Source: Candidatus Poribacteria bacterium
Lineage (GTDB): Bacteria > Poribacteria > WGA-4E > PCPOR2b
DNA: 64,000 nucleotides
Reading direction: 5' to 3'
Assembly (NCBI GenBank): GCA_965208675.1
Contig: OZ242351.1
Span: 3,200,001 to 3,264,000, forward strand
Below are positions 18,107 through 60,077 of the stretch, in pieces. Every line of letters starts with the position of its first letter. The stretch's first letter is position 1. The translations under genes were made by a program, and so were the position numbers. The notes beneath the pieces were generated by a model, which was not told the origin of the DNA, did not search any database, and saw only the letters and a list, made by a program, of their open reading frames with translations.

Positions 18107-21100
18107 TCACTGAAATTCGCCGCGCACCGTCACTGAACTCGCAATTGATAAGAAATCCCGCCCCTCCTCGACATGGTCGTTGTTATAGCTGAGACCGAGA
18201 TTCAAATTCGCAGTCAGGCGCGTGCTTAGGTTGTACCGCGTTCGTAACGTCGTCTCGTAACGTTCCGATCTCTCCTCCCGATTCTTCCCATAGTTCTCCC
18301 GGCGGATAACCGTAGACAACGTATTCGTGAGATCCAAATCGTGCTTGAGAGGGATTCGCCCCAGAATCGGTATCGGAAGTCCTCCCTCTAAACGAAGCTT
18401 GTAGTCAATGCTGAGATTCGGCGTGATTATCAGCGCCGAACTGTCAATCCCGCCGCCGCGAACCTGGTCTCGCATCGTCATGCGAACACCCAGCGCACCC
18501 CGCGTTGATGCCCCCAGCGACTGGGTCCAACTGACGGACGGTTCTTGGGAGACACTCTCGTTTATCGTCGTATTGATGTTACTCTGATCCCGCTGCGTAT
18601 GCCGGTATCTTAACTGCAAGCTCGAACTGGCGTTAAACAACAGTTTGATGTTGCCTTCGTAGCTTATTGTCAGGTTGTCGGACGAAGTGCTTAAGGATTT
18701 CGTAAAACCCTTGCCGCGGGAGACGTTTGTGCCGAGCGACATCCACGACCATGGATCGACCGAAGTCCGAAATCCATACCGGTTTCTCTGCCGAGATTGG
18801 CTGCGCTCCGGTGTGTCGGCTGGAAGTTCCAGAATATCTCGAATTGAGGTTCCCGGTGCGAGCCGCTGAAGGGAGTCTTGCGTATCAAAACTAACATCAG
18901 CGTTTAACGCAAGACTCTCCATACTTCGACGAAGTAGACCGGATTGCCCATCACCCTGTTTGCCCTGCCTCTCCTTCAGCTTGCGCTCTAGTTCAGCTTT
19001 GTCTCGGGAAATCCAATCTCCTCTTTGGCTCTCTGCCTCTTCGAGCATGTCCATATCAACATCCATACGTTCAAGTCGATCCAGCTCGCGCTGCCGTTTC
19101 TCTTCGAGTTTTATCTCTTCTTCAAAGCTGTCGAGTGTCTCTTGGTTTTTTTCATCCAAAACTTTCGCCTTCGCTGTTCGGTTAGAACTATCTTCCTCCC
19201 TATTCGGTCGGTCGATCCCGTCTCCAATCGTTTCAATATTCGCATCTCGGAACAGCCATCCAAACCATACTCTTGGGCGCATACTAAGGCCAAAGCGGAT
19301 ATTCGCGTTGATTCGGGCGTTCTTCTGATCGCGAAACCAGTCTTCACGTAAACTGATACGGTTGCTGATTGTTGGACGAATGCCAAAAAAATCGCGGTTC
19401 AATCGCGGGTTCAAAGACATCCGATGTTCACGTCCGCCAATGGTAAACTCCGATTTGGTTTCGGGTGACTCAGGCTCAGCCGTCATGGATAGGTTGGTTG
19501 TTACCGGCGTTGTTTGGAACGGTGTTCCAAAACTAGTGGCACCGAACCCGCTTGTACGATTGAGATTATCATCGCGCCTTTCAAGCGTACGGCTAACCTC
19601 GTAGGTCGGATTCAGGCTGAAGCTTGCAACCGGACTGATATTGATTGAGATTGAGCCGCTGTCAACTTTCTCGTCTCGGTTACGTCCGTAACCATAACCA
19701 AAGGATGAAAAACTGCTGCCGCCGGACTCTGTTGCCGTAGATGGATCGACCTCAACGTCTTCGTGTCGGTACTGCACATCAAGCCCGAAGATTTGGCCAA
19801 GTCCGTATTGGAAGGTGGATGTATAGAGATTGCTAACCTCGGTCCCCTGGCGTTCGTTCCAGAAATTCTGTCGATTGTAAGCAAAACCCAAGGCGGGCAC
19901 GTATCGGTGCGGATTAAAGCGGGCGGACACATCGCGGTTATGCGTTTTGCTTTTCCCGCTTTGAAACGTGCTAAACGATCCGCGGCGGCTCTCCGTCTCA
20001 GATTCCTGTTCGCGGATGGAGTAGGAAATTGGCAGCCAGCGGAAAAGATGGAGATCGGCATCTATGTTGTAATCGTTGCTGGTTGTGCTAAACCCTAAAT
20101 CCTGCCTGCGTTGCCGCCCTGTTTGTCCGGATGAACTTTCAAAATCCTTGTCTTGTCTTGCAAATCCGCCGCGAACACTGAGAAAAGGACCAAGTTCTAT
20201 AGACATGTTGGCGCGCCGCGCCCAGCCCGACCGCACGAGTGGATCACTCAAGTGGATTTCGTTAACCCAAACTTCCCCGCCAACCTCATGTTCCGTGTCG
20301 TTGCGAATGCCGACCAAGATACCGCCGATGCTCTTAATTGAAAGTTGAGAACTGTTTGTACCACGGATGACTAACCCGTCCGGATGGCCGTCAGTTTCGT
20401 TTGAATCGACCGGCTCCTCAATCTCCCCTTCAATGGTGTCAAGCGATTCTTCCTCCTGTGCCGCAGGCAGGTTTAAATCTGGGTATTCATTCCGTTTCAC
20501 ATCCTCCAGATCGATTTCAATCAGTTCCCAACCTTCAAAATCAATCACGCGCGTATATTCATAAAAGTCGTTAAGATTCTCAAAGATATTCACCCCTTCC
20601 TCCGGTTCCCGACTCGGTTCATCAAAAGAGCCCGAAGAATAAAAGGACGATCGGTAATTGGTGCGAATGCTCGGCGCCAACCGCATCACAAATGTCGAGT
20701 GGCTCTTGTCCCCGTAAATCCACAGCTTGAGTTTATCATGTTTTGAGAAATCTTGGCCCTCGCCCTGGCGAAGACCCCGCAACTTTTGCGAAGTAACTCC
20801 GAATGAACCCGGAAGTAAATTGTAGGTTAAAGTCAGAGTTTGTTCGCGCTGTTCCTGTTGAAAACCAAAAACACTGCTCGATACAAACGGATGGAGTTTC
20901 TTAAATGCCTTGTTGTCTTTAATCTGGTCGTAGGCATCTTGATAATCATCAAAGTTATAGTTGTCTTTCGTGGCAACAGTAAACACTTCTGCCGTCTCAG
21001 TAACGACGTTTCCCTGCTGAGTGACAACGCCCTGTTGCCATTGGTTTCCTACGAGTTCAATCGAAGCCCACTCCATAGTCCCATTAACAGTGCCGGGGCG

Positions 21101-24100
21101 GTTCTTCCGCAGCCAAAAACGGAGATGTTGCACAAACCCTAAGTTTGGGAGACGGCTACCCGCAGACGCCGCTTCCCGCAGCGGAATGCTCAAGAAGGTC
21201 CAACCGCTCTGGTTACGTTTTTTGACCCACTCTTCCGGAATATCGTTCAGCGGGATGGCAATCTCAAGGTAAGCGTCAATTGTGTCCAGAACCCCGTCGC
21301 CGTTCAAATCTTCAGTATCGAACTCTTTATTGTCGGCGCCAACCCGCCTCGGTTGGAGTGAAGCATCATAATCCCATCCTTCATCTTCGCCGGTGTCGAG
21401 CGATCCGTTCGCACTGAATTTTTGGGATGGCGGCAAATTTTCCAAATCTAAGTCTAGCGTATCAACTTTCCCGTCCCCGTTAGTATCTTCCAACTCCTTC
21501 GGAAGATCCTCTGAATCAAGTCGGTTGTCAAAATCGCTGTCCTCGCTGACAACACCGAGATCTAGATATAACGTAACATCATCATCGCCGCGCACACGCA
21601 ACCAAATTTCCAACGCCTCTCGATCTGAAAAATCAGCCCCCGAGGCTGATAGTCCATACGAAAATCCGCCCCACTCTTCAATGACATCCGTGAAATCATA
21701 CCCGACCTCCATCACAAGACGCTGCTCCGTCGATAGTGCGAACGGGTTTATGGAGGATGCCGGTACGTCACGGTTCCGCATGTAATTGCCGACAGCCTTG
21801 GAATCGTCTTTATCTCTTAGCAGGACGCGAAAGAGCGCGCGATTCTCCGGCGTCAATTCTTCTATGAATGGCGGACTGCAAACGCGCCAACTATGCTTAA
21901 ACGTAGACACGCTTGTCGCCTCTCTCGCGCCTTCCATGCTATCAATTAACGCGACCCCCACGCTGTTTGGGTTGTTATGGGAGAATGCCGTCTCGCCGCT
22001 GAAATCAATCGACAGTGGAAAGTGCTTCACGGTAACGAACGGCATTGGATTGAACAGCCATGCGAGGTTGAAGCTACGCCCGAAACTCGTATTGACGTTG
22101 AACGCTTGCAGACGATTAGGCGCATCGTTCACATCAGGAATACGGCTCGGCTTCTGCCCAGTATTCAGAATATAACCCGTTGACAGGCTAAATCCTTTTC
22201 GGAATACCGGGTTAAAATACGAACTTGCGCCCGTGTTAAGCCGCCGCCGGGAACGTCCGCTCAAGCTTGAGTAATCGCTGCCAAAGCCGCCTCCAAAGCC
22301 GCCGCGCCCGAATTGATTGCCAAAACCGCCAAAGGAGGCTCCCTGCCTAAAGCGATTGCTCTCTTCGCGTCTATCAAGACCGCCGCCTAGCCGCTCAAAT
22401 CGATTAGATTGACCTTCTTCGGCAGGTGTCTTCGACTTGGGGACGTAAGCGTATTCCAACCATACGCCAGCGACGGTTTGCTGCAACGCGCTGCCGAAAG
22501 GCGTGCGCTCAAATTCAACCTCGATTTCATCATATTCATCTAGCTTGGTAAAGAAGCGGAGGCTCCCCACCTCATAAATCATTGTGTAATCAATATCACG
22601 CTGTAGTAGGCGATTGTTAAGGCGCACCTTTTCGCTGCCCGGAATCACAAAGAGACCCACGTTGTAAGTTTCGGATTGGTAGGCGTAGTCGCACACTATT
22701 GTGTACACCTGATCACTGGGACGCGGGTTTTCAAGGTAAATCAGTTCGTTGTTCAGTTGTTCACGGAACGGGTAGTACGGGCTGGCCGGTTCTTCGATTA
22801 CAAACGGCCGCAAACTGGGAAAGATTAAGAGGCCGCGGTCAAAATCAATAAACTCCGGATCGACAACCCCGTCCCCGTTAGTATCTAGTCCAAATATTTG
22901 AATATAAGGAATCGGCCCGTCTGGCGTCTCGAACGCTTCACTGCCGCCCTGCTGCCAAATCGCAATCTGATAATCGCGAGGGTTGATATTTCGGTTGCCG
23001 AGGCTGTACACACGGCGCGCTTCAGTGCCGCGCAAACTTTTTTCTTTGAGGACTACGTAACCAACTTCTTCGCCCTCTTCATCAATCGAACCATCGCCGT
23101 TTTCATCTTCAAAGACATTACCCGGTTTCCCTACAACGCCTCCGCCATCCCCGAGATACTCATAGGCAACGACAATTCGGTAACTTGGTGAAATTTGCGT
23201 TAGGAATTCAATCTCTCCAGTTTCATAATCGATGTTATAGTCCTGGCCCGGGAATTGGAGGTTGAAATATCCCTGCACCGTCCGCTGGCCGCCTTGATTG
23301 TTGCCCGCAACGTTATCATCAATGTAAATTTCTTCGCTCCCCTTTTTTATTGGAGGATAGGAGCCGTGGAGTAGGCCGTCTTCACCCAGTGAAATTAAGT
23401 AGAAACGCTCTTTAACGTAGTTTGCATCGGGAATCTGAACGCCGCCGCCATACCCCGAACCCGCACGCCTTGATTGTCCGCTGAAGCGGCGTGTCTCGGA
23501 TATGCCTTTGCTGCGCGAGCCAAACGCCGTCATTTTGACATCACCCAGCGCCGCGACAGCTTCGAGCCCGAATAAATTCCGGTTGACGTTCAGGAAACGA
23601 GTGTTTGGCAAATTCAGTGTAATGTCGCCAAAAGAGAGAGTTTTGAGGATGCTGTCCTGTCCGCCCTGGTACCAAACCCGAATTTTCTGTTCCTTCGCGC
23701 CGCCGAATCCGCCGCTGTAGCCTCCATAGCCGCCATAACCGCCGCCCAATGCATCACCGGAATCGCTATAATCAACCTCGACGTGTGTATGTTCCCCCAC
23801 TCGACCGTGCAGGCCGACTTGGAGGGTTTGTCGGATAGTCGGTCCGGAGGCGCGGGGTACACCCCCAAAACGGGTCGTTCCAAAACCCCCGCCGAACCCA
23901 CTGCCATAGCCGCCGCCGTAACCGGTACTCCCATAGCCTCCGCCGAATCCACCCCCGAAATCGTCATAGCTGTCGTAGCCGTAAGAAGAGGTCAATCCCA
24001 GATCCAGCCCAGAACCGAAACCGCCCTGGTACCCGCCCCCGAAGCGGTTAATGTCGCCCTGACCGAAGTAGTGCGTATGATTCATTTCAACGGTTACCGA

Positions 24101-24643
24101 TTTGTGTCCTGTAATCTGCAGGGTAGAATTCAGAGGCAGTACCAACCCTTTCTCTTCCTTTCCCGGCTCGTTATCGCGCAGTCGGTACAAATCTCGAGGT
24201 TCAATCGCGAAGGGAGAATCCTTCCACCGTCGCAGCGCCTCAAGGTATGGCGTCACCATCTCTAGGGACGGCTCTTCTTCCGGTGTGGACTCGAGTCTTG
24301 CATCCACTTTCCATGGATCGGCCCATGTTTTGCGCGGGGATTTATACCTTCTGAAAAAATCGAGAGCGGGCGCCGTACTTTCCGACGATGATTCATAATT
24401 CTGCTTCACCGACCCATCAGAATCTTCTTCTCCAAAGGTCTGTGTGGTGTCCTCAGATTCTTCCTCATTGTCCTTTGGCGGCACCGTGCGAAGTTCCAAA
24501 TAACGATGGGTTAAGGCGGCATCTTTGCGGACAGGTTCCGCCTGGACGCGGGTGATAGAAGAGATAACCAAAATCACTCCGGAAGCGATAAGCATGAAGC
24601 GTGGAACCGAACGTTCCGTGATGGGATTTGTTTTAGACTTCAT
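18107..24643 (-). CDS. sprA: SprA/Sov-like large outer-membrane beta-barrel (T9SS translocon homologue)
   Basis: Signal peptide; segment KIRVWYQGGQDSILKTLSFGDITLNLP..NLFGL and motifs DTEDLNGDG and GEVWVNEIHL resemble SprA; amphipathic strands ending ..VRGEFQ; 2178 aa. Confidence 0.7.
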   Translation of the reverse strand: MKSKTNPITERSVPRFMLIASGVILVISSITRVQAEPVRKDAALTHRYLELRTVPPKDNEEESEDTTQTFGEEDSDGSVKQNYESSSESTAPALDFFRRYKSPRKTWADPWKVDARLESTPEEEPSLEMVTPYLEALRRWKDSPFAIEPRDLYRLRDNEPGKEEKGLVLPLNSTLQITGHKSVTVEMNHTHYFGQGDINRFGGGYQGGFGSGLDLGLTSSYGYDSYDDFGGGFGGGYGSTGYGGGYGSGFGGGFGTTRFGGVPRASGPTIRQTLQVGLHGRVGEHTHVEVDYSDSGDALGGGYGGYGGYSGGFGGAKEQKIRVWYQGGQDSILKTLSFGDITLNLPNTRFLNVNRNLFGLEAVAALGDVKMTAFGSRSKGISETRRFSGQSRRAGSGYGGGVQIPDANYVKERFYLISLGEDGLLHGSYPPIKKGSEEIYIDDNVAGNNQGGQRTVQGYFNLQFPGQDYNIDYETGEIEFLTQISPSYRIVVAYEYLGDGGGVVGKPGNVFEDENGDGSIDEEGEEVGYVVLKEKSLRGTEARRVYSLGNRNINPRDYQIAIWQQGGSEAFETPDGPIPYIQIFGLDTNGDGVVDPEFIDFDRGLLIFPSLRPFVIEEPASPYYPFREQLNNELIYLENPRPSDQVYTIVCDYAYQSETYNVGLFVIPGSEKVRLNNRLLQRDIDYTMIYEVGSLRFFTKLDEYDEIEVEFERTPFGSALQQTVAGVWLEYAYVPKSKTPAEEGQSNRFERLGGGLDRREESNRFRQGASFGGFGNQFGRGGFGGGFGSDYSSLSGRSRRRLNTGASSYFNPVFRKGFSLSTGYILNTGQKPSRIPDVNDAPNRLQAFNVNTSFGRSFNLAWLFNPMPFVTVKHFPLSIDFSGETAFSHNNPNSVGVALIDSMEGAREATSVSTFKHSWRVCSPPFIEELTPENRALFRVLLRDKDDSKAVGNYMRNRDVPASSINPFALSTEQRLVMEVGYDFTDVIEEWGGFSYGLSASGADFSDREALEIWLRVRGDDDVTLYLDLGVVSEDSDFDNRLDSEDLPKELEDTNGDGKVDTLDLDLENLPPSQKFSANGSLDTGEDEGWDYDASLQPRRVGADNKEFDTEDLNGDGVLDTIDAYLEIAIPLNDIPEEWVKKRNQSGWTFLSIPLREAASAGSRLPNLGFVQHLRFWLRKNRPGTVNGTMEWASIELVGNQWQQGVVTQQGNVVTETAEVFTVATKDNYNFDDYQDAYDQIKDNKAFKKLHPFVSSSVFGFQQEQREQTLTLTYNLLPGSFGVTSQKLRGLRQGEGQDFSKHDKLKLWIYGDKSHSTFVMRLAPSIRTNYRSSFYSSGSFDEPSREPEEGVNIFENLNDFYEYTRVIDFEGWELIEIDLEDVKRNEYPDLNLPAAQEEESLDTIEGEIEEPVDSNETDGHPDGLVIRGTNSSQLSIKSIGGILVGIRNDTEHEVGGEVWVNEIHLSDPLVRSGWARRANMSIELGPFLSVRGGFARQDKDFESSSGQTGRQRRQDLGFSTTSNDYNIDADLHLFRWLPISYSIREQESETESRRGSFSTFQSGKSKTHNRDVSARFNPHRYVPALGFAYNRQNFWNERQGTEVSNLYTSTFQYGLGQIFGLDVQYRHEDVEVDPSTATESGGSSFSSFGYGYGRNRDEKVDSGSISINISPVASFSLNPTYEVSRTLERRDDNLNRTSGFGATSFGTPFQTTPVTTNLSMTAEPESPETKSEFTIGGREHRMSLNPRLNRDFFGIRPTISNRISLREDWFRDQKNARINANIRFGLSMRPRVWFGWLFRDANIETIGDGIDRPNREEDSSNRTAKAKVLDEKNQETLDSFEEEIKLEEKRQRELDRLERMDVDMDMLEEAESQRGDWISRDKAELERKLKERQGKQGDGQSGLLRRSMESLALNADVSFDTQDSLQRLAPGTSIRDILELPADTPERSQSRQRNRYGFRTSVDPWSWMSLGTNVSRGKGFTKSLSTSSDNLTISYEGNIKLLFNASSSLQLRYRHTQRDQSNINTTINESVSQEPSVSWTQSLGASTRGALGVRMTMRDQVRGGGIDSSALIITPNLSIDYKLRLEGGLPIPILGRIPLKHDLDLTNTLSTVIRRENYGKNREERSERYETTLRTRYNLSTRLTANLNLGLSYNNDHVEEGRDFLSIASSVTVRGEFQ

Positions 24644-24931
24644 AGAATCTGGGAATGGAACACGTCGTTAGTTTGTAACCACGGTTCTAAATGAATTGAT
24701 AACGATAAGGCTAGGGATTAAACGGGAAAACGAAAAGGCTAGTTTACCGCGGGAATGGAAGATTGGGAGGTGAGTGAGGCAATCTTGCCCTTCTTGATGC
24801 CTTTAAGCGATTATGGTAGAATCCTCACGTGGTTTTTGTGTACAGAATCCGAATCAAGACAAAAGAAAATACATAATCAAGCGAACCATTCCCTCTTGAG
24901 ATCCGCCTAATAGCGTGAAGAGATTTTAATA

Positions 24932-26605
24932 ATGAGTCGAATCCCAGACAGAGAACTGATTAAACGGAGTATTGATGGTGACAGCCAAGCTTTCTCGATC
25001 CTGATAAAACGTGTTGAGACGCCGCTGGTGAAGCTTGTCAAATCCAAAATCCCTGACCCTGCATCTGCCGAGGATGTCCTACAAGAAGTACTTTTGGATG
25101 TGTGGCAAGGTTTAAAGGGACTTCGGGACCCGGACCGGTGGGCTGCATGGGTCATGCAGATTGCTCGAAACCGATGTCATGATTTCTTCCGGTTAGCTCA
25201 GCGTCGAGAGGCGCCCATGGCGAATTGCGATCTTGAACCCATCCTCAATAGACAAAGTCAACACGGTAGCTTTCAGACCGATCTGCTTGATACTGTGCTC
25301 CAAACCCTGTCCCAAGCGCCGCCGGATCATGTCGAAGCCGCTCACCTATTCTATCTTGAAGGATTAACCATCAGACAAATTGCAGTGCAGTTGGGAAAGC
25401 CGGAAGGAACGATCAAGCGATGGCTTTCCCACACTCGTAGTTTTGTTAGGAATCGCCTCGGATTGAGGCAGATGAGAATCGAAAGGAGGAAGACCATGAC
25501 TTCCGCTAGCCCTTTAACCGGCAACTACCCTCAACAGAATACCCTCTGTTTACCGCCCGGCGCTGTCGCCAGGTTCGGCAAAGACGGAAAGGATCTACCA
25601 GTTCAAGACTCTCAAGAGATTAACCGCTGGATTGCCACTTTTTCACGCAATGGGGAGCACCTCGTCGGTCTCGACACAGACTACTCTCTGACGCTGTGGG
25701 ATATTGAAAACGGGGAAAAAATCCGGACACTTGAGCAAGTTACAGGGCATAGTTTGCATGTTAATTTATCCCGAGGGGAAACTGTAGCCTGCTCATCCGA
25801 TGGGCGCTTTCTGGTTATCAGTTTTTTTACAACCGGCGGGCAAGAAACAGTCAGATTGTGGAAGGACGGGACTATCGCGGACTTCACACCGGAACAACCT
25901 GTATTTACTGCGGCGGTATCACCGGATGGTCAACTCATGGCAACTGGCGGCTGGGATAGAACAGTCACACTCTGGAGTGTGGAAACCCAAACCGTCTATC
26001 GAACTCTGAAAGGCCATATAGGCGAAATCTACGTGCTTGCGTTTTCGCCCGACGGAAAATTTCTAGTAAGTGGAGGAGCGGACAATTGGATAGAACATCC
26101 AGAGAGTGTAGCTAGAAACACAGACGGTGAACTTGTGTTTATTATGAAAGAGGGTATATCTCATTTTTTTACCCCTGATGAGAACCATATTGACAAGACC
26201 GCCAGAGTTTGGGAAGTCGCCACGGGCAAAAATATTGCCACGCTCGAAAACCCGTCCCAGGTTAGAGCGGTTGCGTTTTCACCCGATGGACATCATGTCG
26301 CCGCCGCTTCAAATGGACATGTTAATCTGTGGCATACAGGGACATGGCAAAAGACGGCGACATTTGATGTCAGAAAGGTTATGTCTATTGCGTTTTCGCC
26401 GGACGGCTCCCGCCTCGCCACCGGCGGAACTTTGCCGGAGCAAACCATTAGGCTGTGGGATGTAGAAACAGGAAACCTCGTTGCTGAATTTTCAGGACAT
26501 AAGAGCCAAGTTGAATCTCTCGCCTTTTCCCCCGATGGTCGTCTGCTCGCAAGCGGCAGTTTTGACCGCACTATCCTGCTGTGGGATGTCACACTGCACT
26601 CCTAA
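24932..26605 (+). CDS. ECF sigma factor fused to WD40 repeats
   Basis: Region 2 AEDVLQEV..WVMQIARNRCHD, region 4 YLEGLTIRQIA..GKPEGTIKRWL; repeats such as AFSPDG..LASGSFDRTILLWDV. Confidence 0.9.
   Translation: MSRIPDRELIKRSIDGDSQAFSILIKRVETPLVKLVKSKIPDPASAEDVLQEVLLDVWQGLKGLRDPDRWAAWVMQIARNRCHDFFRLAQRREAPMANCDLEPILNRQSQHGSFQTDLLDTVLQTLSQAPPDHVEAAHLFYLEGLTIRQIAVQLGKPEGTIKRWLSHTRSFVRNRLGLRQMRIERRKTMTSASPLTGNYPQQNTLCLPPGAVARFGKDGKDLPVQDSQEINRWIATFSRNGEHLVGLDTDYSLTLWDIENGEKIRTLEQVTGHSLHVNLSRGETVACSSDGRFLVISFFTTGGQETVRLWKDGTIADFTPEQPVFTAAVSPDGQLMATGGWDRTVTLWSVETQTVYRTLKGHIGEIYVLAFSPDGKFLVSGGADNWIEHPESVARNTDGELVFIMKEGISHFFTPDENHIDKTARVWEVATGKNIATLENPSQVRAVAFSPDGHHVAAASNGHVNLWHTGTWQKTATFDVRKVMSIAFSPDGSRLATGGTLPEQTIRLWDVETGNLVAEFSGHKSQVESLAFSPDGRLLASGSFDRTILLWDVTLHS
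25482..25498 (+). promoter_or_regulatory. Internal in-frame ribosome-binding site and ATG (Met189)
   Basis: AAAGGAGG-6 nt-ATG at 25496. Confidence 0.65.
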
Positions 26606-26704
26606 CATGGTTAACTTCACGCCTGCCCGGCGCCCAGCCGAGATATGCCAATAGGACGCACCCATTTTTTGGAAAACGGTTTTGCGTGGAAAAACAACCT
26701 CATA

Positions 26705-28213
26705 ATGAGTCGAATCCCAGACAGAGAACTGATTAAACAGAGTATTGATGGTGACAGCCAAGCCTTCTCGACACTGATAAAACGCGTTGAGACGCCGCTG
26801 GTGAAGCTTGTCAAATCCAAAATCCCTGACCCTGCATCTGCCGAGGATATCTTACAAGAAGTACTTTTGGATGTGTGGCAAGGTTTAAAGGGACTTCGGG
26901 ACCCGGACAGGTGGGCTGCATGGGTCATGCAGATTGCTCGAAACCGATGTCATGATTTCTTCCGGTCAGTCCAGCGTCGAGAGGCGCCCATGGCGAATAG
27001 TGAACTTGAACCCATCATCAATAGACGAAGTCAACACGATGGCTTCCAGACCGACCTGCTCAATACCGTGCTCCAAACCCTGTCCCAAGCGCCGTCGAAT
27101 CATGTCGAAGCCGCCCATCTATACTATCTCGAAGGTTTAACCATAAGACAAATTGCGGCACAGCTGGGGAAACCGGAAGGAACAATCAAGCGATGGCTTT
27201 CACACGCCCGTAGTTTTGTCAGAAGCCGCCTAGGACTAAGGCAAATCAGAATCGAAAGGAGGAAGATCATGACTTCCGATACGCACGAATCCGAATATTA
27301 CCAACGTCGAGCGCAACGCGATATCGCCGCCTGTCGCGAAGACGGGGCCGCGTCGCTCAACCTGAAAAATCCCGTTGGATCAAAAGAACTCCCCAGTGAG
27401 GTGTGGACGCTGACTCAGTTGAAAGATCTCTCGCTGTGGTGGAACAAGCTTGAGAACATCTCAGAGGATATCGGGAGATTGAAGCACCTGGAAAGTCTTT
27501 ATGTAGAGAGTGACCAACTCAAACAGTTGCCAAACCAGATTGTGTCCCTGTCACGCCTGAGACATCTGGAAGTTATTGGCAGCCAAATGACTGAACTGCC
27601 GGCGGATTTGGGCCGTCTTAGTGCATTACGGACGATTATTTTCCAGCGCACGCAACTCCAGGAATTGCCCGCCAGCTTTGGCGAATTAAACCGACTTGAA
27701 GTCGCTGAGATGGACGATAACCAGTTTAGAAAGTTACCAGACGATTTGAGCGGATTGACCAATCTCCACGTGTTAACGCTGCAAGGCCACCAGCTTTCGG
27801 TGTTACCCAAAACATTAGGTCAACTCTCCGCTATGGAAGAACTGTATCTTGACTACAACCACTTAGATAGCTTACCCGAGGAAATTTGTAATCTTCGAAA
27901 CCTTGAGACGCTGTCAATAGCGAATAACCAAATCCACTCGCTGCCGCCGTGCATAGGCAATTTTTCCAAGCTACAGTATCTTTTCGTCGAGTCAAATCAG
28001 CTCGCGAATATTCCACGAGAAATTGGGAAACTCACCGAATTACGGGAGTTGGCGTTGAGTAGCAATCAGTTAACTTCCTTACCGAAAGCGCTTGCAAACC
28101 TCCCAAACTTGCAAATTTTAAAACTCCACGACAATCCCCTGCCTGACCAGTTGATTCAGGCAGCGAAAAACGGAATTGATGAGTTCCGCGGGGCGCTAGC
28201 GGCGATCGCTTAA
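26705..28213 (+). CDS. ECF sigma factor fused to leucine-rich repeats
   Basis: Sigma domain paralogous to 24932 (start assigned by homology); ~11 23-aa LRRs (LxxLxLxxNxLxxLPxxIGxL). Confidence 0.9.
   Translation: MSRIPDRELIKQSIDGDSQAFSTLIKRVETPLVKLVKSKIPDPASAEDILQEVLLDVWQGLKGLRDPDRWAAWVMQIARNRCHDFFRSVQRREAPMANSELEPIINRRSQHDGFQTDLLNTVLQTLSQAPSNHVEAAHLYYLEGLTIRQIAAQLGKPEGTIKRWLSHARSFVRSRLGLRQIRIERRKIMTSDTHESEYYQRRAQRDIAACREDGAASLNLKNPVGSKELPSEVWTLTQLKDLSLWWNKLENISEDIGRLKHLESLYVESDQLKQLPNQIVSLSRLRHLEVIGSQMTELPADLGRLSALRTIIFQRTQLQELPASFGELNRLEVAEMDDNQFRKLPDDLSGLTNLHVLTLQGHQLSVLPKTLGQLSAMEELYLDYNHLDSLPEEICNLRNLETLSIANNQIHSLPPCIGNFSKLQYLFVESNQLANIPREIGKLTELRELALSSNQLTSLPKALANLPNLQILKLHDNPLPDQLIQAAKNGIDEFRGALAAIA
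27255..27271 (+). promoter_or_regulatory. Internal in-frame ribosome-binding site and ATG (Met189)
   Basis: AAAGGAGG-6 nt-ATG at 27269. Confidence 0.65.
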
Positions 28214-28384
28214 CAGGTTCATCTGTTAGGTGATAGTAGAGCAACAATTCAATTAGTTTTCACCTGTTGGAATTTACGAATTCGTGGTATAATCTATGAA
28301 TTGTGTGAGTCCTTGTGCAAATGATGTAAGCAGGGAAAAAGTATTGTTCGCCGATAATATCTTCTCCTCGTGACGGGAGGTTAT

Positions 28385-29350
28385 TTGAAAGCTGCTCAAA
28401 TTGTTGCGCCGCGCCAACTTGAAATCATCGACATAGGTGTACCCGATATTTCCTCGGAACCTGAAGGCGCAGTGCTTATTAAAGCGCGTCTTAGCGCAAT
28501 TTGCGGAACGGATATGCCGTATTTTGCGATGGAACATCCTGCGGCAGATTATCCATTTGCGACGGGGTTGTCCATCCATGAGTGCATCGGTACGATTGCT
28601 GCAAGTAAGTCCGATCGTTTCAAGGAAGGTGAAACTGTGCTTGCGCTTCCGAACGAGATGCGCGGGCTCGCAGAGTACTTTTTGTCGCATGAAGATGTCA
28701 CAGTCCCACTGCAAACATTCCATCGCGGCGACTGTATTTTGATGTCACAACCGTTAGGCACCGTCATCTGGGCATGTCGGAAGTTTGGCAATTTGCTACA
28801 TCAGAACGTCGTGATTGTAGGGCAAGGACCAATGGGTTTGCTCATGGCGCATATGTTGAGTAATCTCGGTGCGAAGGCGATTATTGGGACAGACTTGTTT
28901 GATTATCGTCTAGCGGTCTCAAAACAGATGCGTGCCACGCACATAATAAACGCAAGCAAAGAAGACGCGGTTGCCCGTGTTGCCGAGCTGACACACGGCG
29001 TGATGGCTGACCTTGTAGTTGAAGCGGTGGGACACCAGACGGAGACAATCAATGACTGCCTAAATCTCGTGAAACCAGGCGGGACAATCCTTGCGTTTGG
29101 TGTGCCTGATGACGATGTATACGATTTTCATTTTGGCGGCTTTTTCCATAAAAACGTGCGTTTCATTGCATCTGTTGGACCGGATGTCCAGAACGACTTC
29201 CCGCTGGCGATGGATATGATCTCGCAAGGACGTATTGATGTGTCGCCAATCATCACTCATAATCTTCCGTTCACTGAAGTACAGCGGGCGTTTGAGCTGT
29301 CCCTTTATAAAAAAGATGGCGCAATCAAGATTACCCTCGAATATGATTAA
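28385..29350 (+). CDS. Zn-dependent (MDR family) alcohol/sugar dehydrogenase
   Basis: ICGTD, HECIG, GQGPMG; GGAGG precedes TTG at 28385. Confidence 0.85.
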   Translation: MKAAQIVAPRQLEIIDIGVPDISSEPEGAVLIKARLSAICGTDMPYFAMEHPAADYPFATGLSIHECIGTIAASKSDRFKEGETVLALPNEMRGLAEYFLSHEDVTVPLQTFHRGDCILMSQPLGTVIWACRKFGNLLHQNVVIVGQGPMGLLMAHMLSNLGAKAIIGTDLFDYRLAVSKQMRATHIINASKEDAVARVAELTHGVMADLVVEAVGHQTETINDCLNLVKPGGTILAFGVPDDDVYDFHFGGFFHKNVRFIASVGPDVQNDFPLAMDMISQGRIDVSPIITHNLPFTEVQRAFELSLYKKDGAIKITLEYD

Positions 29351-29491: not shown

Positions 29492-30559
29492 CTAAATTAG
29501 TGTTTGTTGTTCCAGCGGCAAGTGGACCATCCGCCCTTCACGGCTGGATTTATAGATGGCAAGGATAATCTCAACTGCTTTTCGCCCCTCGCGCCCATCA
29601 ACAAGGTGAGGCATACCGGTATTGATACTGTGGATAAAATCTGTCATTTGCCGTTGATGGTTAGCATGCTTAATTTCTCGCGGATCAGCCGCACCGCCTC
29701 CTCCTGATTGTCTCCTCGCATATTTGCGGCGTATCTCGGCGTCTTCCGGCAACTCCGGATCAAACTTCCATGTTGTAATATCTTCTTCTTCCAAAATGAC
29801 TGTGCCGTTGCTGCCCGAAATCTCAATACGTTTCAAAAACCCTGGGTATACAGCGGTTGAACCTTCAATGATTCCCAAGGCGCCGTTTGCAAAACGCAGA
29901 GCGGCAACAGCAACATCCTCTACCTCAATACGCTCATGCGCCAATGTATACGTGAATGCCTGTACCGCTTTGACAGGCCCCATGAAGTATTGGATGAGAT
30001 CGACGGCATGGATGGACTGATTCATAAGTGAGCCGCCGCCGTCAAGTTTCCACGTGCCTCGCCATCCGCCGCTGTCGTAATATGCTTGCGAACGGTGCCA
30101 CTTAACGTAAGCGTCGCCCAAAGTAAGTTTCCCGAAACGGCCGGAATGGATTGTCTTCTTTAACAACCGACTCGCTTCGACAAATCGCGAGTTAAAGATT
30201 GCACATAGACGCACCCCGGCTTCGTCACAAGTTTGGATAATTTCATCGCACCGATCCAATGTGATTTCCAACGGCTTTTCTACAATGACATGTTTGCCGG
30301 CTTCCGCAGCCGCGACTGCCGCCTCCAGATGGACACCGCTAGGCGTGCATACACAGACGATGTCGAGGTCATCGCGTTTGAGCATCTCACGGTAGTCCGA
30401 ATAGCCGTCCACATGATATCTATCTGCTAACCGCCTGACATTTTCGTAATGTCGGGAACTGACAGCGGCTAATCGTCCACGGTCTAGCTCGGCGATTGCC
30501 GCGGCGTGGACATCCGCAATCATGCCGCAGCCGACAATTCCGAAACCATAAGTTTTCAT
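29492..30559 (-). CDS. Gfo/Idh/MocA oxidoreductase
   Basis: GIVGCGMIA, HVIVEKPL, GGGSLMNQSIH. Confidence 0.9.
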   Translation of the reverse strand: MKTYGFGIVGCGMIADVHAAAIAELDRGRLAAVSSRHYENVRRLADRYHVDGYSDYREMLKRDDLDIVCVCTPSGVHLEAAVAAAEAGKHVIVEKPLEITLDRCDEIIQTCDEAGVRLCAIFNSRFVEASRLLKKTIHSGRFGKLTLGDAYVKWHRSQAYYDSGGWRGTWKLDGGGSLMNQSIHAVDLIQYFMGPVKAVQAFTYTLAHERIEVEDVAVAALRFANGALGIIEGSTAVYPGFLKRIEISGSNGTVILEEEDITTWKFDPELPEDAEIRRKYARRQSGGGGAADPREIKHANHQRQMTDFIHSINTGMPHLVDGREGRKAVEIILAIYKSSREGRMVHLPLEQQTLI

Positions 30560-30738
30560 GGCAATAGGCGCCCCAATGCAAATAATTCCCACTGCCTACC
30601 ATACGTAAAGTTCATACGGCCTCTCGGTAAAAATAATAAAAATGATACGGTCATTTGAGTCTCCCCAAGCCAAACCCCGTCATTTTTTTCGACAACAAGA
30701 CAATAGTCAAATGTCTTGAGAAACGCAGGATTTTCATC

Positions 30739-31314
30739 ATGAAAAAGCTTATCATGGCGTTCTGCCTCATTGTGACGATTGGATTTATCTGGATCTGGCA
30801 CCATCAAATTCAGTTTAACGATGAGTCGCGCAAAGCCTTTTTTCATCTGAAGAGCGGCGAAGTTGACCAAGCAATCAATGCTTATACTAGCGCCATCAAG
30901 CATAAAAAGCGTACCCTCTTTTTCTCGAAAGCACCATTCCTATATAATAACCTCGGTCAAGCCTATCTGAGTAAGGCACAATATGATGAAGCGATCGCGG
31001 CTTTCAAGCATGCCCTCGAAATCAAGCCGGATGCAGTGGAAGTTTATATCAATCTAGCAACGGCTTACCTGAAGCAGAATTTGCCTCGCCGAGCACTCGA
31101 GGCGTGTCAGCAAGCCATCCGGATTGACCCTCGCTCTCCCTTCGCCCACTACAACTTGGCTTGTGCTTACGCGCTAGCCGACGACGCTGCAAAAGCGATT
31201 GATTCCCTCGAAAGCGCCATTAAACTTGACAAGCAAATAAAAAAGTACGCGCAAGAAGAAAGGGCGTTCGATACACTTCGGTCCCACCCTCTGTTTCCAA
31301 AATCCAATCCCTAG
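30739..31314 (+). CDS. Membrane-anchored TPR protein
   Basis: N-terminal TM helix; repeats YNNLGQAY, YINLATAY, HYNLACAY. Confidence 0.85.
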   Translation: MKKLIMAFCLIVTIGFIWIWHHQIQFNDESRKAFFHLKSGEVDQAINAYTSAIKHKKRTLFFSKAPFLYNNLGQAYLSKAQYDEAIAAFKHALEIKPDAVEVYINLATAYLKQNLPRRALEACQQAIRIDPRSPFAHYNLACAYALADDAAKAIDSLESAIKLDKQIKKYAQEERAFDTLRSHPLFPKSNP

Positions 31315-48885: not shown

Positions 48886-49989
48886 CTAGCTTTCAAGCCT
48901 CATAGGCATAATCAATCCGAGATGATTATCTTCGCCAACAGGTTTTAAAACCACGGCACTTAACGCATCTTTGAATTCCATCACCACCTCTTCAGTTTGA
49001 ATATGCCTCAACACATCTATCAGAAAACGCGCATCAAATGCGATTTCGATTTCGCCATTGCTGCTTTTGAAATCTATAGTTTCCTCAGCTTCTCCTAATT
49101 CCGGCGTTTTTGCAGAGATATTAACCGCGTTTTCATGTACATCCAGTCGGATGGAGAAATTTTTTGGGTTTGAGAACAAAGCAACACGCCTCAATGCACT
49201 GAAAAACAACTCCACATCAAGCACAACTCTTCCCTCATTGTCTTTCGGGATAATCTGCTCGTATTTAGGATATTCCCCTTCCACCAATCGAGAAGTAAGG
49301 GTTGCAACATCATCTGCGAAAATGATTTGATTTTCCCGCAAACAGACGCGTATCTCCTCCGATTCAGCAAATGTCTTTACAATTTCACGGACTGCTTTGA
49401 GGGGTACAATTATACCCATCGGTTCCGTTGGCGCTGGTGTCAATGGGCCATCAGAAGCGATAGCCAAACGCCGCCCGTCTGTCGCAACCATCTGAGTGAT
49501 TTCGGGTGTCAAATAAAAGTAAAGCCCGTTAAGAAAATACCGCGTTTCCTCAGTCGAAGCTGCAAACTCAGTCTTGTAAATCATTGATCGTAGAATTTCC
49601 CCGTTAATTGTAAAAAAATCGTCCTTAATTGTAGGAAGATTCGGAAATTCGTCATCGGGCAAACCAATCATTTTGTAAGTACCTTGTGCGCATACAATTT
49701 CAACGCGATCGTTCGCGGTGGTAGTAAACCTAATTTCTGCCGGCGGAAGTTCACGTGCAATTTCAGCAAGTTTTCTTGCGGAGAGAGTAATAGCACCTTC
49801 GTCGGATATTGTTCCCGGAACAATCATTCGAATACCGACCTCCAAATCTGTTGATGCTATTACAATTTGGTCGCCGGTCGCATCAATTAAAACGTTCGAT
49901 AATATCGGCAGCGTGTTTCTTCCAGCAGCTACACTCTGTACTACTTGTATTGCTTTTAGTAAATTGTCCTTTTCAAATGTTAATTCCAT
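48886..49989 (-). CDS. dnaN: DNA polymerase III beta clamp
   Basis: TLPILSNV, STDLEV, ATDGRRLA, EGEYPKY, LIMPMR. Confidence 0.97.
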   Translation of the reverse strand: MELTFEKDNLLKAIQVVQSVAAGRNTLPILSNVLIDATGDQIVIASTDLEVGIRMIVPGTISDEGAITLSARKLAEIARELPPAEIRFTTTANDRVEIVCAQGTYKMIGLPDDEFPNLPTIKDDFFTINGEILRSMIYKTEFAASTEETRYFLNGLYFYLTPEITQMVATDGRRLAIASDGPLTPAPTEPMGIIVPLKAVREIVKTFAESEEIRVCLRENQIIFADDVATLTSRLVEGEYPKYEQIIPKDNEGRVVLDVELFFSALRRVALFSNPKNFSIRLDVHENAVNISAKTPELGEAEETIDFKSSNGEIEIAFDARFLIDVLRHIQTEEVVMEFKDALSAVVLKPVGEDNHLGLIMPMRLES

Positions 49990-59102: not shown

Positions 59103-60077
59103 CTACCCAAAGGCGACGCCCAATTTGACGCTCCGTTCAGGGTGCTTGTCCATCTCTATGTAAGCTTCAACTGAATCTTCAAACGGCACCACCGGGTCAA
59201 CAACGTCTTCGCAGTCAAATCTGCCGTCTTCCAGCCACTTCCAGCAGGTTTCGAAGATACGTTTGAAATCCCAACGCGGATGATCGCGGTTCGGATCGCT
59301 GTTGGCGCGTGCGAAGATGATGTTAGGAATGTTGACATGTGCGACAGCACCGAGGTCAAGTCCGCCTGTACACATTTTCGCGCGTCCAGCGTAGACGATT
59401 GTCCCTTCAAAAGCGACGCCGCGAAGCGCATCATCAAGGGCTTCGTACACTGCACTCGTTTCTACAGCCACATCAACGCCAAGTCCGCCAGTCGCTTCTT
59501 TAAGTACCTCGCCGGTATTTGAGTCAGCGGGATCAATGACAAGCTCCGCCCCAGTCTTTTCCGCGACCTTCCGCCGTCTTTCGAGCGGGTCTACGGCAGC
59601 GACAAAATCAGCCCCCGCAATGCGTGCCATCTGCACCGTCATCAACCCTATTGCGCCAAGTCCAAAGACAGCCACCCGATCGCCAACGCGGACCTTTCCA
59701 TCACGAATCGCAGACATTGCGAAGTGCGCCGGATCATAGCAGACCGCCTCTTTCCACGTCATCCGGTCAGGCATCTTAACGACATTCCCAGCAGGCAACG
59801 TATGCGTCTCCCTAAGATGTCCGTGATTGGAGACGCGTTCCCCAATCTCGCAACCTTCAACCTCTTCCCCGATTTCAATAATTTTTCCGACGTACATATT
59901 CCCAAGGCCCATCGGAAAAGTTTCGCCGTCGTGTGCGTAGTATGCTGTGAGTTCGGTGCCGCGTTTGGGTGAGCCGAACTCGACTTGAACCCGCACACTG
60001 TCCGCAGGAATGGGACCATCTTCATACTCTCTCAAGACCGGCTGACCGGGGGCAACCGCGACTAATTCTCTTGGCAT
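59103..60077 (-). CDS. MDR-family (zinc-binding ADH-like) oxidoreductase
   Basis: GTEL, GLGAIG, GVDVAVE; canonical Zn cysteines not evident. Confidence 0.82.
   Translation of the reverse strand: MPRELVAVAPGQPVLREYEDGPIPADSVRVQVEFGSPKRGTELTAYYAHDGETFPMGLGNMYVGKIIEIGEEVEGCEIGERVSNHGHLRETHTLPAGNVVKMPDRMTWKEAVCYDPAHFAMSAIRDGKVRVGDRVAVFGLGAIGLMTVQMARIAGADFVAAVDPLERRRKVAEKTGAELVIDPADSNTGEVLKEATGGLGVDVAVETSAVYEALDDALRGVAFEGTIVYAGRAKMCTGGLDLGAVAHVNIPNIIFARANSDPNRDHPRWDFKRIFETCWKWLEDGRFDCEDVVDPVVPFEDSVEAYIEMDKHPERSVKLGVAFG

Follow-up and report, generated by a model that had tools for sequence, protein, structure and literature searches.

Tandem ECF sigma factors fused to WD40 and leucine-rich-repeat domains in a Poribacteria genome: a putative internal start signal, probably retained from a coupled operon

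Sigma factors of the extracytoplasmic function (ECF) type may carry additional domains behind their core, and those with C-terminal extensions make up 19 groups, among which ECF57 has a WD40-like extension according to the available text of PMC8999054 and PMC7826278. In this work we describe two tandem genes of this kind in a stretch of 64,000 nucleotides (nt) from a Candidatus Poribacteria bacterium (GenBank assembly GCA_965208675.1, contig OZ242351.1, positions 3,200,001 to 3,264,000 of the forward strand), which is called the window throughout. In gene 1 an ECF sigma factor continues in frame into a WD40 beta-propeller, and in gene 2 a closely similar sigma factor continues, likewise in frame, into a leucine-rich-repeat (LRR) domain. 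At the joint between sigma factor and extension (hereafter the cargo), both genes have a strong Shine-Dalgarno (SD) sequence followed by an in-frame ATG. We think that this joint is probably the start signal of a partner gene from a coupled operon, which was retained after in-frame fusion and would still yield free cargo beside the fusion protein.

The ECF41 (SnoaL-like), ECF42 (TPR) and ECF57 (WD40-like) sigma factors resemble the window genes in that the frame runs on from an ECF core of regions 2 and 4 into a soluble domain. As in other extension-bearing ECFs, the extension is longer than 300 amino acids (aa), the protein lacks a membrane segment and no anti-sigma gene can be recognised beside it. 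The likeness of gene 1 to the planctomycetal ECF57 lies in the WD40-like extension as the available text describes it; the NCBIfam model TIGR02989 (Rhodopirellula/Verrucomicrobium family) gives 69.4 bits, below its cut-off of 124.55. An LRR extension on an ECF sigma factor was found neither in the available text of PMC8999054 and PMC7826278, where 'leucine' and 'LRR' have 0 occurrences and the group supplements of PMC7826278 lie outside the scope, nor in a wider literature search. Likewise, a conserved internal start at the joint of sigma factor and extension is not described in the same text, supplements excepted, or in the wider search.

Internal initiation at a domain boundary has been reported elsewhere. 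For ArcB-C of Escherichia coli, the available part of bioRxiv 10.1101/520783 describes an internal start that yields the C-terminal domain, shown by Ribo-RET and western blot, at a site conserved in 26 species. The likeness lies in an SD-like sequence that is placed, with its start codon, exactly where a C-terminal domain begins; in ArcB it gives this domain as a diffusible protein in addition to the full-length one. However, ArcB is a kinase whose internal product was shown, whereas the window genes are sigma factors known from sequence alone, with a signal that we trace to a former separate gene. Coupled operons of a sigma factor and its partner, such as those at the loci L008 and L012 discussed below (L stands for loci and P for proteins in our own numbering), have the partner start at the place equivalent to the window joint, after region 4. 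They differ in that the window genes have no stop there, the frames are merged and the partner, a beta-barrel protein, is swapped for LRR or WD40. The IutY hybrids (ECF243) also unite sigma factor and regulator in one polypeptide, as stated in the available text of PMC8999054, but they are membrane-bound and freed by regulated proteolysis, whereas the window proteins have no membrane segment and their second product would arise by initiation. The window case would join the C-terminal extension of ECFs with internal initiation at a domain boundary and would add an evolutionary origin. The eukaryote-like repeats of Poribacteria (LRR, WD40, TPR and ankyrin) are usually read as host-interaction proteins. 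The phylum and the repeat classes are the same here, although the repeats of the window genes appear to be cytoplasmic appendages of transcription factors, without signal peptide or membrane segment.

Gene 1 encodes 557 aa and gene 2, counted from MSRIPD, encodes 502 aa; gene 2 also has an upstream ATG at 26645, chosen by the program that listed the open reading frames (ORFs), which gives 522 aa. The Pfam domain Sigma70_r2 (PF04542) is found at residues 24-91 with 45.2 bits in gene 1 and 46.2 bits in gene 2 (cut-off 24), and Sigma70_r4_2 (PF08281) in gene 2 with 35 bits (cut-off 25.7). For gene 1, whose Pfam results comprise the best 25 of 52 families, region 4 is indicated by the orthologue P0002, which has PF08281 precomputed, and by a module 89% identical to that of gene 2. 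The NCBIfam model TIGR02937 (sigma70-ECF) matches residues 20-176 when gene 1 residues 1-188 are scanned, with 69.2 bits against a cut-off of 42.9. The sigma core of 188 aa, without regions 1.1 and 3, fits the architecture of ECF (group IV) factors. Soluble extensions follow region 4, both in frame and longer than 50 aa: 369 aa with WD40 repeats in gene 1, and 314 aa with LRR_14/LRR_8 repeats in gene 2, according to Pfam. No membrane segment was detected in either protein by Kyte-Doolittle hydropathy (maximum 19-residue means of 0.86 and 0.65), and the values are about 0 around the joint, in agreement with an earlier note on this DNA, which had stated that no transmembrane helix separates sigma factor and cargo. 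The features of the locus are collected in Table 1.

Table 1. Positions of the genes, modules, joints and neighbouring features, counted from the first nucleotide of the window
Feature	Position	Strand	Basis
Gene 1: ECF sigma (residues 1-188) and in-frame WD40 beta-propeller (189-557)	24932..26605	+	ORF, Pfam, NCBIfam
Gene 2: ECF sigma (residues 1-188) and in-frame leucine-rich-repeat domain (189-502)	26705..28213	+	ORF, Pfam
Module copy 1: sigma coding region and joint	24929..25508	+	blastn, ungapped comparison
Module copy 2	26702..27281	+	blastn, ungapped comparison
Internal SD AAAGGAGG (25482-25489), 6-nt spacer, ATG (25496-25498), codon 189 of gene 1	25482..25498	+	motif search, duplex energy
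Internal SD AAAGGAGG (27255-27262), 6-nt spacer, ATG (27269-27271), codon 189 of gene 2	27255..27271	+	motif search, duplex energy
WD40 cargo frame from internal ATG, 369 aa	25496..26605	+	public predictions of 369/374 aa starting MTSAS...
LRR cargo frame from internal ATG, 314 aa	27269..28213	+	AlphaFold2 model
Spacer between genes 1 and 2, 99 nt	26606..26704	+	without upstream-motif copy or terminator-like hairpin
Candidate ECF-type promoter of gene 1: GCGAACC, 16 nt, CGCCTA	24881..24909	+	conserved upstream motif; ends 22 nt before ATG
2178-aa protein, N-terminal hydrophobic stretch, Gly-rich runs (GGFGGGYG...)	18107-24643	-	divergent to gene 1
Zinc-type dehydrogenase	28370-29350	+	domain scan; also neighbour in L001
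GFO/IDH/MocA oxidoreductase	29492-30592	-	domain scan
TPR protein	30655-31314	+	domain scan

The joint reads GAA AGG AGG AAG AYC ATG in frame, within a string found at 25481-25505 and 27254-27278. The earlier note had placed an SD, a 6-nt spacer and an ATG at codon 189 of both copies; they were located there, with a duplex energy of -11.6 kcal/mol that ranks 3rd and 4th among the 284 in-frame internal ATGs of the 35 long ORFs of the window and is on a par with its best true starts (-11.9 and -11.3). The same note's statement that the 5' starts have no comparable SD also agrees with the energies: the ATG of gene 1 (24932) scores -2.9, and the upstream one of gene 2 (26645) scores -3.0; before the gene 2 ATG at 26705 no SD-like run is seen by sequence, the energy score covering 26645 instead. 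SDs of the AAGGAG type do occur at true starts of this organism (e.g., 48886..49989 and 59103..60077, both on the minus strand), and 11 of the 35 starts given by the crude longest-ORF rule score -7.3 or lower.

Structure prediction also places a domain boundary at this point. The AlphaFold2 model of gene 2 (mean predicted local distance difference test, pLDDT, of 84.8) has a helix at residues 178-189, a break, a helix at 192-213 and then the repeats, so that the boundary falls at the joint, where the block 181-190 has a mean pLDDT of 58. The capping helix of the LRR domain starts 3 residues after the internal ATG. Because of this, and because free relatives of the WD40 cargo start near the internal ATG (see below), the free products would be complete domains. 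The matches of the LRR cargo to NCBIfam models of type III effectors and internalins stay well short of the cut-offs, the best having 175 bits where 600 are required, and reflect the repeat only.

The signal was scored in 17 fused loci, with L006 left out. An SD of -7.9 kcal/mol or lower and an in-frame ATG are present in 16 of them, which cover three cargo types and two phyla; the miss is the Bacillota locus L024, where the ATG is kept and the SD is weak (-3.6 kcal/mol). The motif is written in two codon registers, encoding R-R in Poribacteria and K-G-E/V/D in Bacillota. At the protein level, the Met of the joint is kept in 49/49 sigma-LRR proteins (alignment A2, 500-502 aa) and in 28/28 fusions to the beta-barrel cargo described below. 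Between residues 179 and 200 of A2 the only invariant or nearly invariant columns are R185 and R186 (49/49), K187 (48/49) and M189 (49/49). At the nucleotide level, AAAGGAG-N-ATG is kept in the DNA of 5 species with sigma-LRR genes, despite synonymous divergence (dS) from the window that is saturated at 1.8-2.4. The dS is 0.6-1.1 among the Poribacteria beta-barrel genes and ranges from 0.7 to saturated among those of Bacillota, whose identity is 49-84%; by these values the fused lineages are old. Moreover, the pentapeptide before the joint Met is able to encode AGGAG or GGAGG in 21 of 28 beta-barrel fusions, in comparison with 40 of 167 other Met residues of these proteins (Fisher p = 3e-7). 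Three ECF41-like fusions with SnoaL served as controls, of which L069 is SnoaL_2 by Pfam and L066 and L073 are SnoaL-like from sequence only: in L069 and L073 a strong SD precedes no Met of the linker, and the sole strong site of L066 lies 8 codons inside sigma region 4. As for RNA folding, over the 60 nt around the internal ATG only 1% of the segments are at least as unstructured in L003-L005, 2-6% in L007, L010 and L011, and 12% in L002; in L003-L005, L007, L010 and L011 the joint region is among the least structured stretches of the gene.

Apart from the joint, Cys82 in the NRC motif of region 2 (25175-25177) is kept in 49/49 LRR and 26/27 beta-barrel fusions. Another Cys is found 17-33 residues past the joint Met in all cargo types, being kept in 49/49 LRR and 18/27 beta-barrel fusions and present in WD40; in the window it corresponds to Cys206 of gene 1 (25547-25549) and Cys210 of gene 2 (27332-27334). 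A redox or metal link between sigma factor and cargo through these conserved residues is conceivable.

The origin of the joint is suggested by the next nearest relatives of the sigma module. These have 36-47% identity, are mostly 440-470 aa long and carry an unrelated all-beta extension; they are found in Poribacteria and Bacillota. The beta-barrel partner has no Pfam or NCBIfam match, and its predicted fold gives weak matches to the YmcC-like proteins 4fvs_A and 3fzx (template modelling scores of about 0.2-0.4); an atlas search gave a weak DUF3108-like lead. All four Poribacteria beta-barrel fusions L007 (AGGAGG-9-ATG), L009 (AAAGGAG-7-ATG), L010 and L011 (both AAAGGAGG-9-ATG) have an in-frame SD and ATG; at L009 the encoded residues are R-S in place of R-R and the motif is kept. 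In the model of L010 the joint Met lies within a disordered linker (residues 172-184, pLDDT below 50). In Bacillota, the same beta-barrel cargo is fused in frame to ECF sigma factors at five loci (L015, L016, L017, L024 and L027), and in L015, L016, L017 and L027 the joint consists of AAAGGAG, 5-8 nt and ATG, the encoded residues being K-G-E, K-G-V or K-G-D. There is no in-frame stop between sigma factor and cargo in the window, L001-L005, L007, L009-L011, L015-L017, L024 or L027. In L008 and L012, from Planctomycetota, the sigma factor and the beta-barrel partner are instead separate overlapping genes in different frames; the partner starts at an ATG 4-10 nt ahead of the sigma stop, with its SD inside the 3' end of the sigma gene. 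Since the signal is there the start of a separate gene, we think that the joint once started the translation of a coupled partner gene and was kept when the frames merged. The earlier note had regarded a stop before the SD in orthologues as a finding that would refute its proposal. Such a stop is seen only in these Planctomycetota, just after the ATG and in another frame; as they are distant relatives with another cargo, it explains where the signal comes from rather than refuting its use.

Some loci of this wider set are mentioned here as separate observations. At L018 (673-800) the ECF sigma gene ends in TAA, with three more stops in the same frame within 24 nt; in the beta-barrel partner sequence that follows, neither ATG nor GTG nor TTG is seen at the beginning. 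Decay of the joint or an error in the sequence may be the reason. Among Armatimonadota, L014, L023 and L061 join an ECF sigma factor to a receiver-like domain (judged by eye), and L035 to a YNCE-like beta-propeller; L023 and L035 have a Met and weak SD-like runs right after region 4, of -5.1 to -6.6 kcal/mol.

The two window genes share the whole sigma module and the joint. The earlier note had described a common module that diverges completely into WD40 and LRR, with 20 amino-acid differences by manual count, and the comparison gave the same picture: by blastn the copies match over 580 nt at 91.0% identity, with 52 differences across the 576 nt counted from the ATG and 21 differences among 192 aa, exactly 20 of which fall within residues 1-189. 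The similarity begins 3 nt 5' of the ATG and ends after ATGACTTCCG, 10 nt past the joint ATG, the flanks having 15-22 identical positions out of 60. No third copy was found in the 64-kb window by tblastn and blastn. The ratio of nonsynonymous to synonymous divergence (dN/dS, Nei-Gojobori method, NG86) between the copies is 0.18. The differences concentrate in the linker between regions 2 and 4, with 11 of the 20 within residues 88-132, and the promoter-recognition regions are nearly alike, which would give both proteins one common regulon. The dS between the modules (24932-25495 versus 26705-27268) is a mosaic, amounting to 0.09 over codons 1-87 and to 0.50 over codons 88-188, and this fits a recent gene-conversion tract across the region 2 half. 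P0009 (LRR) and P0010 (WD40), encoded on the same contig, have identical 188-aa modules, and in the tree the window's two modules group with each other's orthologues (support 89/99, branch not starred). The modules of a pair thus appear to be homogenised in concert within the genome.

The two fusions seem to differ in age. Sigma-LRR proteins of about 500 aa gave 67 matches, around 50 of them clusters at roughly 70% sigma-part identity, and the relatives of the LRR part with at least 52% identity number 51, all fused to a sigma factor and with no free LRR form among them. Sigma-WD40 was seen only in the closest relatives (P0001, P0002/L001, P0010, P0398, P0399, P0401 and P0404), and 557-aa orthologues of gene 1 are P0002/L001, P0399, P0401 and P0404. 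L002-L006 have sigma-LRR alone, without WD40 within 6 kb. Judging from this distribution, sigma-LRR appears to be the older, conserved family in Poribacteria and sigma-WD40 a recent derivative confined to the closest relatives. The ORFs are continuous in 5/5 intact sigma-LRR or sigma-WD40 loci with DNA, and the frame of the extension is unbroken in the window and in L001-L005.

Unlike the LRR part, the WD40 cargo has free relatives, such as P0218/P0219 (about 630 aa) and P0297 and others (366 aa), which start within a few residues of the joint. When the free form MMRCDSSASTLTG... is compared with the fused ...MT/SASPLTG..., the breakpoint is found 2-3 codons past the module ATG; therefore, the SD and ATG came with the sigma module and not with the WD40 gene. 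A fused form of 810 aa (P0398 and P0010) further implies that the WD40 cargo of the window lost about 250 residues internally. Public sets also contain predicted proteins of 369 or 374 aa starting with MTSAS... (P0215-P0217, P0400, P0402 and P0406-P0408). We rejected the 'free' 369-aa proteins on contigs of 1348-1872 nt as proof of a separate gene, because these lengths fit the unique segment between two module copies and an assembly break is likely. Calls of 369 or 374 aa from the joint Met occur as well on long contigs, for P0400 (5.0 Mb), P0217 (51.9 kb) and P0406 (24 kb), where an assembly break is no explanation. Three loci found through the WD40 part (L019, L022 and L048) were set aside, as they encode kinase-membrane-WD40 proteins and not sigma fusions, and they provide no ECF57 control. 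A second, unrelated family of ECF sigma-WD40 proteins, of about 540 aa, was encountered in P0321, P0325, P0326, P0328 and P0329, with the joint ...SGG(L/P)TAMKI...; its Gly-Gly could encode GGAGG about 9 nt before the joint Met, and it has free cargo cousins of 366 aa (P0297 etc.).

These observations can be brought together in the following proposal. The two genes would be tandem paralogues of a Poribacteria-specific ECF sigma factor with a cytoplasmic C-terminal repeat domain, the sigma-WD40 form having arisen when the duplicated module with its joint became attached to a WD40 protein, and the sigma modules would since have been partly homogenised by gene conversion. The joint would originally have been the start signal of a partner gene lying directly downstream and overlapping the sigma end; the frames would have merged in this lineage, and nucleotide-level selection would have kept the signal. 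Each mRNA would then be read twice, from the weak 5' start for sigma-cargo and from the strong internal site for free cargo, which may be in excess in view of the weak 5' sites. Our guess is that free cargo modulates the fused sigma factor as a coupled partner would. When the sigma module (A2 residues 1-188) and free LRR cargo (189-502) were modelled as a complex, the scores were 0.47, 0.00 and 0.01, which speak neither for nor against it. We assign a probability of about 0.58 to the reading in which the start signal of a coupled operon outlived the in-frame fusion and free cargo is still made next to the fusion protein. The idea of the earlier note that each gene makes two products is supported by the comparison of joints, registers and Met residues, while the product itself remains a prediction. 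Its idea of a portable unit of sigma factor and ribosome-binding site holds as far as the same joint is found on beta-barrel, LRR and WD40 cargos and the WD40 capture occurred just past the ATG, with a single recent capture documented. A broader version would see across phyla ECF 'operons without a stop codon', in which one frame gives fusion and free partner and sets the ratio of partner over sigma factor, while the cassette joins other genes in frame and recruits sensor domains to an existing regulon (LRR, then WD40, replacing the beta-barrel). We hold it as a tentative possibility.

Several results weigh against continued use of the internal start. The window's own joints are unremarkable in RNA folding, as 39-47% of the segments are equally unstructured, and the energies were calculated with a generic anti-SD motif rather than the host's own; an Rfam scan of the window gave no match, hence no 16S rRNA. 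A sliding test of codon identity over three sigma-LRR lineages, underpowered as it is, shows no peak at the joint and higher values in other stretches. The codon baseline is 98 of 264 codons identical, with all-AGR codons in 6 of 23 conserved Arg columns. The DNA sample consists of 13 independent joints plus close duplicates, and many of the 'free' 369-aa calls sit on contigs of 1.3-1.9 kb that are probably assemblies broken at the module. Should coupled operons have given rise to fusions several times and not long ago, relics of recent origin could be among the signals. In addition, for an organism known only from assembled genomes, the use of the internal start by ribosomes is inferred from sequence comparison. 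An SD and ATG left over from a two-gene operon, with no initiation and with the extension of the fusion regulating sigma in cis, as the C-terminal extensions of other ECFs do, would be in line with some of these results, namely the codon test, which is not significant within the sigma-LRR family, and the window copies, where RNA structure is not locally lacking. It would also suit the unfused overlapping forms of L008 and L012, which give the signal an ordinary origin, and L024, which lost its SD yet stays fused. Nevertheless, a relic should not last where the fused genes have reached dS saturation and their proteins share 35-80% identity, nor persist in two codon registers whose amino acids differ, nor keep its Met in all 49 and all 28 proteins within a variable and partly disordered linker, and we find this explanation rather unlikely.

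The signal could instead be a by-product of the protein or of elongation, the basic end of region 4 and a hydrophobic contact of the Met serving the fusion itself, or the SD-like run slowing ribosomes between the domains for folding. The invariance of R185, R186, K187 and M189 in sigma-LRR (nearly so for K187) and the position of R185-M189 at the end of helix 178-189 are what such a constraint would produce. However, in the wider family the residues vary among R-R, R-S, K-G-E, K-G-V and K-G-D while the nucleotides AAAGGAG stay, a pause needs no ATG 5-9 nt downstream and yet the Met is universal, and the joint is modelled with low confidence in both the LRR and the beta-barrel proteins. In our opinion this makes the constraint improbable. 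Even less probable, we think, is that the locus is caught in a transient state, in which one of two redundant sigma modules decays and the internal start becomes the sole cargo start, leaving one sigma gene and free cargo genes. There are broken relatives that fit it. In L001, the closest relative, the sigma-LRR gene, which is the second of the pair (L001:7675-8994; P0062, 426 aa), has lost in frame about residues 31-129, all of sigma region 2, while its joint SD and ATG and its cargo are intact, the cargo having a dN/dS of 0.28 versus the window. In L006 (5983-7998) the sigma-LRR gene is broken inside region 4, with a stop after ...TIKRWLS; about 360 nt further on, the coding sequence of region 4 is repeated in part, and from there the frame stays open across the joint and the intact LRR cargo. 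Either an insertion accompanied by a duplication or a fault of the assembly could account for this. P0057 starts at Met 96 of the sigma part, and the 369/374-aa forms on long contigs point in the same direction. Against such a decay, 49 intact sigma-LRR fusions could be aligned with every sigma hallmark conserved, the gene 1 sigma module has a dN/dS of 0.10 versus L001, and the small dS between L001 and the window (0.12-0.16) means that the deletion may be very recent.

Turning to the surroundings of the two genes, AAGCGAACC-N16-CGCCT is invariant in 7/7 aligned upstream regions (window and L001-L006; alignment A3), and we take this element to be the putative promoter of gene 1. A loose search with the motif gave 3 matches in the window, none of them before gene 2, which is not above chance as 30 of 100 shuffles reach 3, and no regulon emerged from it; a scan of sigma-70 promoters and terminators was not above shuffles either. 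Because the leader of gene 1 is homologous to the sigma-LRR leader of L002-L006, gene 1 stands at the ancestral position and gene 2 behind a new spacer. Gene 2 is probably co-transcribed with gene 1. No anti-sigma domain was found in the four scanned neighbours (the SprA-like giant protein, the zinc dehydrogenase, the GFO/IDH/MocA oxidoreductase and the TPR protein). The sole Pfam signal in the giant protein of 2178 aa is SprA_N (type IX secretion/gliding), sub-threshold at 22.9 bits for a cut-off of 27, and nothing evident connects the downstream neighbours with the sigma genes.

An ECF sigma factor that carries a fused extension is regarded as a signalling system made of one protein. If the proposed reading is true, at least one lineage makes two proteins from such a gene, and the stoichiometry of sigma factor and regulator would be written into one reading frame. 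Besides adding LRR to the domains found on sigma factors, the locus shows that some of the 'eukaryote-like' repeat proteins of Poribacteria belong to transcription factors and are not secreted host-interaction proteins. It would also offer a concrete case in which coupled operon, gene fusion and domain swap can be understood as steps that lead to one another.

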